Below the pieces are notes generated by a model. The model saw only the letters and a program-made list of their open reading frames with translations, was not told where the DNA came from and made no database searches. Shown here in pieces: positions 23,381-24,823 of a DNA stretch of 24,823 nt. Source of the DNA: Candidatus Omnitrophota bacterium (GTDB lineage Bacteria; Omnitrophota; Gorgyraeia; Zapsychrales; Zapsychraceae); assembly GCA_015233405.1 (NCBI GenBank), contig JADFXT010000022.1:1-24823 (forward strand), given 5' to 3'. Position 1 is the first letter of the stretch. Each line of letters opens with the position of its first letter. The position numbers and the translations under genes are program-made.

Positions 23381-23455
23381 TTTGTAACATCTGTTCTTTG
23401 AAGATATTTATAAAATCTATTCCCCTGTAGCTCAGCTGGTAGAGCAAGTGGCTGT

Positions 23456-24045
23456 TCGCGAGTTCTCGCTAAAGCGGGACGAGCGTCAGGAGTTAAAGGA
23501 GGCATCAACGGGATGGATAAGCGTCATTATAAGGATCGTCGTGAATATCTCATCAAAGCTGTTCATGCACGTCGGAAGAAGGTGCGTGAGATGGCTGTCG
23601 CCTATAAGGGTGGCAAATGTGAGAAATGTGGGTACGATCAATGTATTGATGCTTTAGATTTCCACCATGTTGATCCAGCTCAAAAAGACTTTAACATTTC
23701 TAGCAAAGGATATACGCGTAGCTGGGAAAGGGTTAAGGTCGAGTTGGATAAGTGCAAGATGTTATGCGCTAATTGTCACCGAGAACTTCACGCACAAAGT
23801 TAGCAGCCTCCATTAGGAATAATGGAGTGACAAGCGGGCTAAGTCAGGAAAATCCTAGACGACATCATTGGGACGACCGAAAGGAAGTCCTGAGGTAAGT
23901 TGAAGGACAATCCTGAGCTAGCAGTCGATTCGGCGTAAGCTGAAATTGATAGGCAAGTGCAGAGACTTTACACCCGCCACCCTAAGGTAATCAAATGCCT
24001 GGGTGAAGAGAAAGTCCGACTCTTCAGGTAACTGAAGTCAGATCG
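23456..24045 (+). mobile_element. Group I self-splicing intron (IC3-like core, about 243 nt at 23803..24045) with an ORF-bearing P1 loop
   Basis: The 5' exon ends …GGCUGU and the internal guide GCAGCC (23803-23808) is exactly complementary with a U·G at the splice site. A P2 hairpin CUCCAUUAGGAAUAAUGGAG follows. Core blocks CAAUCCUGAGC, GUGCAGAGACU, CCACCCUAAGG and AGAGAAAGUCC resemble (from memory) the Azoarcus tRNA-Ile and Anabaena tRNA-Leu introns. Terminal G at 24045. Confidence 0.75.
23513..23803 (+). CDS. Intron-encoded HNH homing endonuclease (96 aa)
   Basis: HNH/zinc motifs CEKCG…DFHHVDP…N…CANCH. Strong RBS AAAGGAGG (23495-23502). The stop TAG abuts the intron internal guide sequence. 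Confidence 0.75.
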   Translation: MDKRHYKDRREYLIKAVHARRKKVREMAVAYKGGKCEKCGYDQCIDALDFHHVDPAQKDFNISSKGYTRSWERVKVELDKCKMLCANCHRELHAQS

Positions 24046-24823
24046 TAACCACTGGGTCCGAGGTTCGAGTCCTCGCGGGGGAGCCATTTAGTAGTAGAAT
24101 CCGAACTTGCCTTTTTCTCGGATAAAGACTTGTAGTACGTCTCAAGTTGAGGGAATTGGTAAAGAGAAAGCTTAATTTTAAGCCACTTAGTTCGGACTTT
24201 AGCTGTAAAAGCCCCTAATTCATTAGGGGCTTTTTCTTTGTCTGGATCAAATCCCCAAACGGTTATTTCTTTGATGAGAAGATTGAAGAGGTCTTTTTGG
24301 TCTTCAAGAGAGAGGGAGTTTGTTACCTTATCAAAAGCGGATAAAGTTTTTTTAATCATTTCTGCATCTAGTACATCTTGATTACAACGTTCAATATTAA
24401 TGGTTAATTTTTCTAGATCATTTTGTAATGAGCTTTTTTGATTTAGAAGTTTCTTGTATTCTTCAGTGATCTCATTACCCACCAAATCTTGGGATTTTAA
24501 GATTTTGATAATTCTATTAATTTCAGCCGTTGTTTTACCAAGCAATTGTTCAGTTTTTTCTTTTTCGTTTTGCAAAGGCTTGATTTTGTTTTTATTCATT
24601 TTAGTGGAGTTCTTGATGGCGGCTTCTATGAGGGCTTTATTATTGCCTAAATCCGTTAGGCATTTCTTGATGACGTTTTCAAATTCTCTAGCTGGTATCA
24701 ATCTCACTCTACAATTTGAATTTGTGCCAAAATCTACAACTCTGCCGCAGGCATAGTATAAATAGGGATTGCCGTTCTTATCTTTTTTCCCCGCAGGATA
24801 GGGGGTAAGAAAGGTGCCGCATT
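24024..24823 (-). CDS. Large serine recombinase, C-terminal ~266 codons (zinc-ribbon plus coiled-coil region); N-terminal catalytic domain lies beyond the window end
   Basis: The frame is open to the window edge. The hand-translated upstream part …NPYLYYACGRVVDFGTNSNCRVRLIPAREFENVI… is the recombinase zinc-beta-ribbon motif (YY.C..C…C), followed by a long K/E/L-rich coiled coil. The annotated GTG at 24707 is not the true start. The last ~20 codons overlap tRNA-Asn exon 2 and the intron 3' end. Confidence 0.7.
   Translation of the reverse strand, partial: CGTFLTPYPAGKKDKNGNPYLYYACGRVVDFGTNSNCRVRLIPAREFENVIKKCLTDLGNNKALIEAAIKNSTKMNKNKIKPLQNEKEKTEQLLGKTTAEINRIIKILKSQDLVGNEITEEYKKLLNQKSSLQNDLEKLTINIERCNQDVLDAEMIKKTLSAFDKVTNSLSLEDQKDLFNLLIKEITVWGFDPDKEKAPNELGAFTAKVRTKWLKIKLSLYQFPQLETYYKSLSEKKASSDSTTKWLPREDSNLGPSGYDLTSVT
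24207..24240. terminator. Palindromic terminator-like hairpin AAAA-GCCCCTAA-TTCA-TTAGGGGC-TTTTTCTTTG (bidirectional)
   Basis: 8-bp GC-rich stem with tetraloop, A-run before and T-run after. About 120 nt downstream of the tRNA-Asn 3' end, yet inside the minus-strand recombinase reading frame. Confidence 0.5.

Follow-up and report, generated by a model that had tools for sequence, protein, structure and literature searches.

The stretch of DNA analyzed here (the window, 24,823 nt) covers positions 1 to 24,823 of contig JADFXT010000022.1 in the Candidatus Omnitrophota assembly GCA_015233405.1. Close to its end, downstream of the genes for Tex, DnaX, and RecR, is a tRNA-Asn(GUU) gene that is interrupted within the anticodon by a putative mobile group I intron, with a small HNH endonuclease open reading frame (ORF) in the loop of helix P1 (Table 1). 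An initial annotation had proposed that two tRNA halves 590 nt apart join into a tRNA-Asn, and these coordinates were confirmed. The joined halves form the anticodon loop CUGUUAA, and ARAGORN identifies the spliced sequence as tRNA-Asn(gtt). The split gene itself was missed by ARAGORN, which reported only a tRNA-Arg and a tRNA-Ser in the window, and by the Rfam tRNA model; exons were located by pattern and then checked with ARAGORN on spliced sequences. Two metagenome contigs (L139 and L143; L numbers are our labels for loci) carry an uninterrupted tRNA-Asn gene downstream of recR that matches the predicted spliced product at 76 of 76 positions. This identity is the strongest single piece of evidence that the halves are exons with exact boundaries. 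A U as the last base of the 5′ exon (U-1) together with a G at the end of the intron (omega-G) is obtained only when the boundary is placed at 35/36 of the anticodon. A boundary at 33/34, which would produce a tRNA-Thr, was rejected because the intron's 3′ end would be U rather than G; this boundary is a known source of misannotation of such genes as tRNA-Thr (PMC13011429).

Table 1. Coordinates of the split tRNA-Asn gene, its intron, and flanking signals, numbered from the first position of the window
Feature	Position	Strand	Remarks
Sigma-70-like promoter (putative)	23353-23380	+	TTGACT-16 nt-TATAAT; ~40 nt upstream of tRNA 5′ end; 11/12 positions match
tRNA-Asn(GUU) 5′ exon	23421-23455	+	Acceptor strand, D arm, 5′ anticodon stem, loop C32 U33 G34 U35; TCCCCTGTAGCTCAGCTGGTAGAGCAAGTGGCTGT
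Exon strand of P1	23450-23455	+	GGCUGU, last 6 nt of 5′ exon
Group I intron	23456-24045	+	590 nt; between anticodon positions 35 and 36; U-1/omega-G
5′ hairpin in P1 loop	23457-23485	+	29 nt; CGC-GAG-[hairpin]-CGA-GCG; possible tandem G·A pairs; fold z only −1.0
Shine-Dalgarno sequence	23498-23502	+	GGAGG, 10 nt before ATG
HNH endonuclease ORF	23513-23803	+	96 residues, in P1 loop; UAG stop (23801-23803) overlaps first guide base
Internal guide	23799-23808	+	GUUA (P10), then GCAGCC (P1, 23803-23808)
P2 hairpin	23809-23826	+	7 bp, GGAA tetraloop; compensatory changes at 7/7 pairs
P3	23834-23838 with 23973-23977	+	100% paired; compensatory changes at 5/5 pairs; encloses P4-P6a
P4	23844-23849/23911-23916	+	98%-100% paired
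P5	23853-23856/23904-23907	+	87% paired
P5a/b extension	23870-23891	+	
P6	23917-23918/23957-23958	+	Never varies
P6a	23923-23950	+	
P7, 5′ strand	23962-23967	+	GAGACU; invariant in 79 cores
J7/3	23968-23972	+	UUACA, 5 nt
P8 hairpin	23978-24005	+	Compensatory changes at 4/5 pairs
P7, 3′ strand	24013-24017	+	AGUCC; pairs with GAGACU with a bulged A; pseudoknot with P3; invariant in 79 cores
P9 hairpin	24022-24037	+	GUAA loop; compensatory changes at 6/6 pairs; 99.6% paired
Tail ending in omega-G	to 24045	+	8 nt; terminal G invariant
tRNA-Asn 3′ exon	24046-24083	+	U36, A37, A38, 3′ anticodon stem, variable loop, T arm, acceptor strand, discriminator G
Encoded CCA	24084-24086	+	Directly after 3′ exon; gene overall 23421-24086
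Intrinsic-terminator-like hairpin and T run	24207-24234	+	120 nt past tRNA; 12-bp stem; 1 found versus 0.9 expected by chance

The intron core is 243 nt long (23803–24045) and ends in G, and it contains all three sequence blocks named in the initial annotation, which had also correctly placed the guide pairing of GGCUGU with GCAGCC, its U·G pair, and the P2 hairpin. With Infernal, positions 23779–24038 match the Rfam model RF00028 over its full length (model positions 1–253; 57.1 bits, E = 3e-12; gathering cutoff, 50 bits). Relatives score 52.8–87.4 bits with this model, and matches were found in all loci scanned (L001, L003, and L005 to L008). An energy-only fold of a 249-nt core (−87.4 kcal/mol, z = −5.5 versus shuffles) recovers P2, P3, P4, P5, the P5 extension, P6a, P8, and P9. 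Helices were drawn on the window sequence and counted in a MAFFT alignment of 79 distinct related cores. Standard pairs occupy 96.0% of cells (40 base pairs, 79 cores), compared to 31%–48% in a control in which the 3′ partners were slid by 1–3 columns. Two-sided changes occur at 28 of the 40 pairs (660 cells), and none of 500 shuffles reached the observed values. Across the 79 cores, P2, P3, P4, P5, P8, and P9 are 87%–100% paired, with covariation at nearly every pair of P2, P3, P8, and P9, and no sequence has lost the G or the A of the GNRA loops of P2 and P9. Every position without variation among the 79 relatives is intact in the window. Conservation supports P7, which is presumably the guanosine-binding helix, as in group I introns generally. 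The annotation as a group I intron is upheld by the model score, the fold, and the compensatory changes.

P1 consists of 6 bp between GGCUGU and GCAGCC, with U23455·G23803 at the splice site. GUUA, immediately upstream of the P1 guide (23799–23802), pairs with UAAC at the start of the 3′ exon to form P10, which was absent from the initial annotation. GCAGC is invariant in the 79 cores, and GTTA followed by GCAGC(C/T) is found in 34 of the 84 sources with a split tRNA-Asn described below. Four hosts have a 3′ exon that starts with TAAT, and in two of these the guide reads ATTA, a compensatory change in P10. The 29-nt hairpin at the 5′ end of the intron has counterparts in relatives, where it takes the form NNN-GAG-[stem-loop]-CGA-N′N′N′ right after the 5′ splice site, within the first 30–50 nt of the intron. 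By a rough count, 33 or more of 79 distinct intron heads have this motif. One ORF-less intron (L014) keeps it, and it is absent from IA-like members, whose ORF starts almost at once.

The ORF lies in the P1 loop and has its own ribosome-binding site, as initially annotated, but it does not fill the entire loop, which also holds the 5′ hairpin and the ribosome-binding site. In many relatives, AAGGAGGTG precedes the start codon. The protein matches PHROG HNH-endonuclease families (E = 5.6e-30 for PHROG 2255 and 1.7e-27 for another), and no NCBIfam model matched it. An alignment of 24 relatives shows C36, C39, H51, H52, C85, N87, C88, H89, and H93 to be invariant; these comprise two CxxC pairs (zinc ligands), an HH dipeptide, and N87, H89, and H93, and the HNH (beta-beta-alpha-metal) motif is present. 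The AlphaFold model, with a predicted local distance difference test (pLDDT) score of 84, has a long N-terminal helix and a small beta-beta-alpha core. Its top Foldseek matches are all HNH nucleases, including Cap5, T4 endonuclease VII, the HNH domains of Cas9, and the Geobacter (Gme) HNH nickase, and the only match in a PDB sequence search was McrA (E = 6.5e-4). The protein is under strong purifying selection. Compared with ten relatives, nonsynonymous differences per site (pN) are 0.09–0.21 and synonymous differences per site (pS) are 0.68–0.98, at or near saturation; the ratio of nonsynonymous to synonymous substitution rates (dN/dS) is 0.05–0.07 where computable. The saturated synonymous sites argue that the compared lineages are old. 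The ORF and the ribozyme overlap across relatives, because many relatives have ORFs that run 10–50 codons past the stop of the window ORF, through the guide, P2, and P3 (…AKLAAS..NxxVxSGLxQGN), with the GCAGCC guide encoding Ala-Ala. Translation and ribozyme folding would compete in these read-through relatives.

Relatives of the HNH protein are widespread. A search of 5.8 billion proteins returned 1,928, the best of which are 70%–87% identical, with the named ones mostly from Ca. Omnitrophota. Among 185,579 species, each represented by a single genome, at least 562 encode a relative. Ninety sources were compared: the window itself, nine loci identified first, and the 80 best from the species-genome scan. 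In 84 of these, a tRNA-Asn(GTT) is interrupted at 35/36, with U-1 and omega-G in place; five others are cut by a contig end, and one (L076) has a free-standing gene with no tRNA nearby. Most hosts are labeled Omnitrophota, and the rest include Planctomycetia, Acidobacteriota/Pyrinomonadaceae (including a 5.5-Mb chromosome), Elusimicrobiota, Melainabacteria, Aerophobetes, Acetothermia, Nitrospira, and others. A close relative, L014 (“Ca. Elulimicrobium”), is placed by NCBI under the Patescibacteria group. The exons comprise 58 distinct tRNA-Asn sequences from many phyla, and the spread is therefore not a binning artefact. Four loci (L001 to L004) are syntenic with the window, in the order Tex-DnaX-RecR-tRNA-Asn::intron. 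L005 is in a different context, and in L006 to L008 the intron-bearing tRNA follows 23S and 5S rRNA genes. At least 573 relatives are encoded on viral contigs (52%–70% identity); most are free-standing, and three are tied to split tRNA-Asn genes. One IMG/VR contig (L165, 1262–2775) has a phage-like tRNA array (Ile, Met, Glu, Thr, Ala) that includes a split tRNA-Asn. Its 194-nt insert has a window-type guide and 5′ half with an IC3-type 3′ domain (AGTCCAGACCACAAAC...GAAAAC...GGTAAAG), and it scored below the RF00028 threshold.

Metagenome contigs were searched with the neighboring RecR protein, and the DNA downstream of each match was inspected for the state of the orthologous locus. Uninterrupted tRNA-Asn(GTT) genes were identified in twenty RecR loci, about 19 of them within 40–580 nt after recR. 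ORF-less introns of 205–353 nt occupy the recR-tRNA-Asn locus in L093, L104, L122, and L130, and ORF-bearing introns do so in the window, L001 to L004, and L090. The L130 intron is 205 nt long and 82% identical to the window core; it is ORF-less and has a five-base P1 loop, so the ORF-bearing form is a compact ribozyme whose P1 loop has received the ORF as an insertion. The 353-nt ORF-less intron in L093 (4676–5028) has a long structured P1 loop in which tblastn found no HNH remnant, and it may carry a decayed or different insertion in L1. Intact free-standing HNH homologs are located just upstream of a tRNA-Asn with an ORF-less 35/36 intron at L010 (2501–3288), L014 (2501–3204), L155 (613–1148), and L165 (1501–2264); at L060 (2020–2776), the homolog is downstream of the tRNA-Asn. 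In L014, an intact HNH gene lies between recR and the tRNA-Asn, the intron of which either lost the ORF or never had it; in L010 the gene is likewise upstream of the tRNA-Asn, and recR was not seen upstream. The HNH ORF in L155 has its stop inside the first bases of the tRNA. Taken together, the empty, ORF-less, ORF-bearing, and free-standing states are what is classically expected of a homing element. The variable presence of the intron at this locus and the conserved HNH and zinc residues support the homing endonuclease originally proposed in the P1 loop.

The window intron can be assigned to a kind that has already been described, because its family is plainly the same as that of the introns of GCA_016700035.1 and GCA_000503835.1. 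According to PMC13011429, Williams (bioRxiv 10.1101/2020.01.27.920355) was the first to report the site and listed the class as “Asn.4Ug”. Nakagawa et al. (2026, mSystems, PMC13011429) showed precise in vitro self-splicing for ORF-less 35/36 introns, one each from tRNA-Asn and tRNA-Asp. Across 4,934 complete genomes they counted 28 introns of this kind, with Patescibacteria accounting for 19. They reported HNH genes in four tRNA-Asn introns, in Patescibacteria only, and inferred limited horizontal transfer. The suggestion in the initial annotation that an ORF-bearing tRNA-Asn intron would be unusual is out of date, given the Asn.4Ug class, the four published HNH-bearing cases, and the number of species genomes reported above. 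The window intron shares with the published tRNA-Asn introns the host gene, the 35/36 site, U-1, omega-G, the GCAGC guide, the P7 strands (CAGAGACU and AUAGUCC), a single P9, and a short tail, and the published genes are likewise missed by standard tRNA finders. The 569-nt intron of the Patescibacteria genome GCA_000503835.1 also has its HNH ORF in the P1 loop, and the two proteins are 52% identical over 92 residues (E = 1e-38). The window core is 66% identical to the 234-nt intron of GCA_016700035.1, which has been validated in vitro. The differences are a host that, going by the labels of the closest loci, is probably Omnitrophota-like, unlike the Patescibacteria hosts of the published HNH-bearing introns, a larger P5 extension, and the 5′ hairpin in the P1 loop.

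An insert, P7.1/P7.2 or P7.1/P7.1a, between P7 and the 3′ strand of P3 is the hallmark of subgroup IA in the Michel-Westhof scheme. This insert is lacking in the window core, where J7/3 is 5 nt, whereas published IA1-labeled examples have a P7.1/P7.2-like insert of 38–78 nt. Among the 79 cores, the segment between P7 and the 3′ strand of P3 is 38–78 nt in 20 and exactly 5 nt in the window and 58 others. Subgroup models placed 25 of the 28 published 35/36 introns in IA (PMC13011429). Profiles were built from labeled introns in the supplement of that study, and the IA-labeled examples compared were those with full sequence. The window core is 66%–67% identical to IA1-labeled tRNA-Asn introns and 67%–74% identical to IC3-labeled tRNA-Leu and tRNA-fMet introns, the highest value being for a cyanobacterial tRNA-Leu intron over 192 aligned columns. 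It scores 26.8 bits with the IC3 sequence profile and 22.3 bits with the IA-Asn profile over different spans, and neither the profiles nor the pairwise identities discriminate between the subgroups. With the IC3 tRNA introns (Azoarcus tRNA-Ile, Anabaena/Nostoc tRNA-Leu(UAA), and cyanobacterial tRNA-fMet), the window shares a compact P1–P9 architecture without P5abc or P7.1/P7.2, GNRA loops on P2 and P9, and a near-identical sequence through J6/7, P7, J7/3, the 3′ strand of P3, and P8. Those introns interrupt other tRNAs at 33/34, 34/35, or 36/37, and their 3′ domain is extended (...AGACCACAAAC...GAAAGC...), whereas that of the window is one short P9 hairpin. Viral contigs L155 and L165 each have an intron at this tRNA-Asn site that combines a window-like 5′ half with a typical IC3 3′ domain. 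Comparison to the Azoarcus and Anabaena IC3 introns, as made in the initial annotation, is reasonable because of the core identities, profile scores, and these hybrids. The resemblance is fair, but assignment to IC3 is not established, considering the identity to IA1-labeled introns and the absence of an IC3-type 3′ domain.

Other group I introns in tRNA anticodon loops have homing endonuclease genes of different families. The Synechocystis-type tRNA-fMet intron encodes a PD-(D/E)XK enzyme, and tRNA-Arg(CCU) introns encode LAGLIDADG enzymes (summarized in PMC13011429); the window intron differs from both in its HNH enzyme, its tRNA, and its site. In collaborative (trans) homing, a free-standing endonuclease acts with an ORF-less intron (reviewed in PMC3984707; T4 mobE study, PMC2790892). 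The arrangements in L010, L014, L155, and L165, and in L060 with its downstream gene, resemble this system, whereas the HNH gene of the window is internal to the intron.

Several features flank the tRNA gene. The near-consensus promoter in the initial annotation is present as a sequence, and two close relatives (L010 and L014) have TTGACA...TATAAT at the equivalent relative position. The role of the terminator-like hairpin is uncertain because it is inside a recombinase ORF on the minus strand (24024–24823). This ORF is open at the window end and encodes the C-terminal part, with zinc ribbon and coiled coil, of a large serine recombinase (PHROG 95, “integrase”, E = 1.4e-6). The ~21 codons at its end are antisense to the final 22 nt of the intron and the tRNA-Asn 3′ exon. 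Recombinase genes are likewise located 3′ of the intron-bearing tRNA-Asn in L006 and L007. The recombinase genes suggest an element integrated at the tRNA 3′ end, the other end of which would be beyond the window. In L029, L042, L069, L079, and L089, a second tRNA-Asn 3′ end occurs 200–400 nt downstream of the tRNA, after a short GC-rich insert (L029: ...TCCTCGCGGGGGAGCCA). These duplicated 3′ ends look like attachment-site duplications made by small elements integrated at the tRNA 3′ end.

Elsewhere in the window, a 94-residue stand-alone ORF with a GIY-YIG nuclease domain is located between the Tex and DnaX genes (20516–20800, + strand; Pfam E = 2.1e-16, with a weak NCBIfam match to “group I intron endonuclease”). 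It is an insertion in the window, because Tex and DnaX are adjacent without such a gene in L001 to L004. Between ~9000 and 17000, G+C drops to 0.35–0.41 and AT skew is strongly negative. Genes in this region code for a DUF3192 protein, an FRG-domain protein, an SPFH/Band 7 protein, a UbiA-family prenyltransferase, and two ORFs without a Pfam match. The region may be a laterally acquired block that starts just after the tRNA-Ser at 8793–8884.

We assign a probability of about 0.9 to a tRNA-Asn(GUU) gene with a mobile group I intron, in which group I splicing is combined with presumed HNH-driven homing; both activities of the window copy are deduced from comparative sequence evidence. A number of observations weigh against this reading. 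In four hosts, the exon strand is GACUGU, the guide is uncompensated, and P1 is shorter. Covariation says nothing on P6 and P7 because neither varies. Promoter-like sites of the quality found here are expected 1.6 times by chance in the region, so that the match is no better than chance. The score for the Pfam HNH model (PF01844), 18.6 bits, is below its cutoff of 21.4. The Foldseek matches are weak (E = 0.04–1; template modeling score, 0.37–0.44), and the PDB sequence and fold searches returned weak generic HNH matches and no characterized homing endonuclease. A protein of 96 residues leaves little room for a sequence-specific DNA-binding domain. The saturation of synonymous sites in a conserved protein agrees at least as well with long-term retention as with frequent recent homing.

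The last two observations bear on an unlikely alternative, which leaves the reading of the ribozyme unchanged but in which the HNH protein has ceased to serve mainly in homing and has a maturase-like or host DNA or RNA role, with the intron inherited largely vertically. The combination of saturated pS and low pN is unlike the usual rapid decay of a homing endonuclease gene after fixation, and the protein is very small, with one N-terminal helix and the HNH core. However, the orthologous locus is found in empty, ORF-less, and ORF-bearing states, the same ORF (64%–87% identity) is found in tRNA-Asn genes of many phyla and in viral contigs, ORF-less family members splice in vitro without protein (PMC13011429), and the catalytic HNH and zinc residues are invariant. 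It is much less probable that the intron is a dead relic that no longer splices, leaving a tRNA-Asn pseudogene and a working gene elsewhere in the genome. That ARAGORN does not call the split gene would fit a relic, but the invariant ribozyme positions are intact and all helices pair, U-1, omega-G, P1, and P10 are perfect, and the exons are identical to functional-looking intronless genes. The gene also has a conserved place after recR with a promoter-like site, its ORF is intact and under selection, and intron-bearing and intronless copies for one anticodon rarely share a genome (PMC13011429). The initial annotation had raised the possibility that the halves are attachment-site duplicates. 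We consider such remnants of an integrated element scarcely credible here, even with a large serine recombinase gene directly downstream on the minus strand, overlapping the tRNA 3′ end, and with duplicated tRNA 3′ ends downstream in some relatives. The two halves complement each other without overlap and meet precisely at a group I intron bounded by U and G. Nowhere in the window do 11 nt or more of the tRNA occur a second time, which excludes attachment-site duplicates. The 590 nt between the halves hold a ribozyme and one small ORF with no integrase, and the identical split recurs in 84 sources.

For a mobile intron in tRNA-Asn, the following sequence of events is proposed. A precursor of ~700 nt would be transcribed, probably from the promoter at 23353–23380, and the intron RNA would fold into the group I core, with P1 formed between GGCUGU and the GCAGCC guide 350 nt downstream. 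Free guanosine bound at P7 would attack after U35, the U of the U·G pair. The guide GUUA would then hold UAAC of the 3′ exon in P10, G24045 would replace the free guanosine, and the exons would be joined, restoring the anticodon loop CUGUUAA. The HNH protein would be translated from its own ribosome-binding site in the P1 loop and would cut or nick intronless tRNA-Asn genes near 35/36, and repair from an intron-bearing copy would insert the intron.

Relative to published work, the new observations are modest. The HNH-bearing form is widespread outside Patescibacteria, the window ribozyme lacks the P7.1/P7.2 insert that is present in 20 of 79 relatives, and the HNH gene is free-standing beside an ORF-less intron in some relatives. 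We tentatively propose, at slightly under even odds, that one long-lived HNH lineage serves the tRNA-Asn 35/36 site across phyla and phages, switching between free-standing and P1-loop states and partnering with at least three ribozyme designs (IA-like with P7.1/P7.2, compact as in the window, and IC3-type in viruses). If this is true, the endonuclease and not the ribozyme would define the element, and the published view that HNH-bearing 35/36 introns are limited to Patescibacteria and seldom transferred horizontally would reflect the sampling of complete genomes only. The 96-residue HNH enzyme and the ~205-nt ribozyme of L130 would make a compact model for the association of intron and endonuclease. 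The intron also hides what may be the tRNA-Asn of the genome from standard finders, giving an apparent lack of tRNA-Asn and lower completeness scores, an effect that concerns many Omnitrophota, Acidobacteriota, Elusimicrobiota, and other metagenome-assembled genomes with the element. The breadth of hosts and of viral contigs with relatives of the ORF, with all stages from empty site to free-standing gene at one locus, suggests that tRNA introns bearing homing endonucleases are much more common and more mobile in uncultured bacteria than the survey of complete genomes showed.

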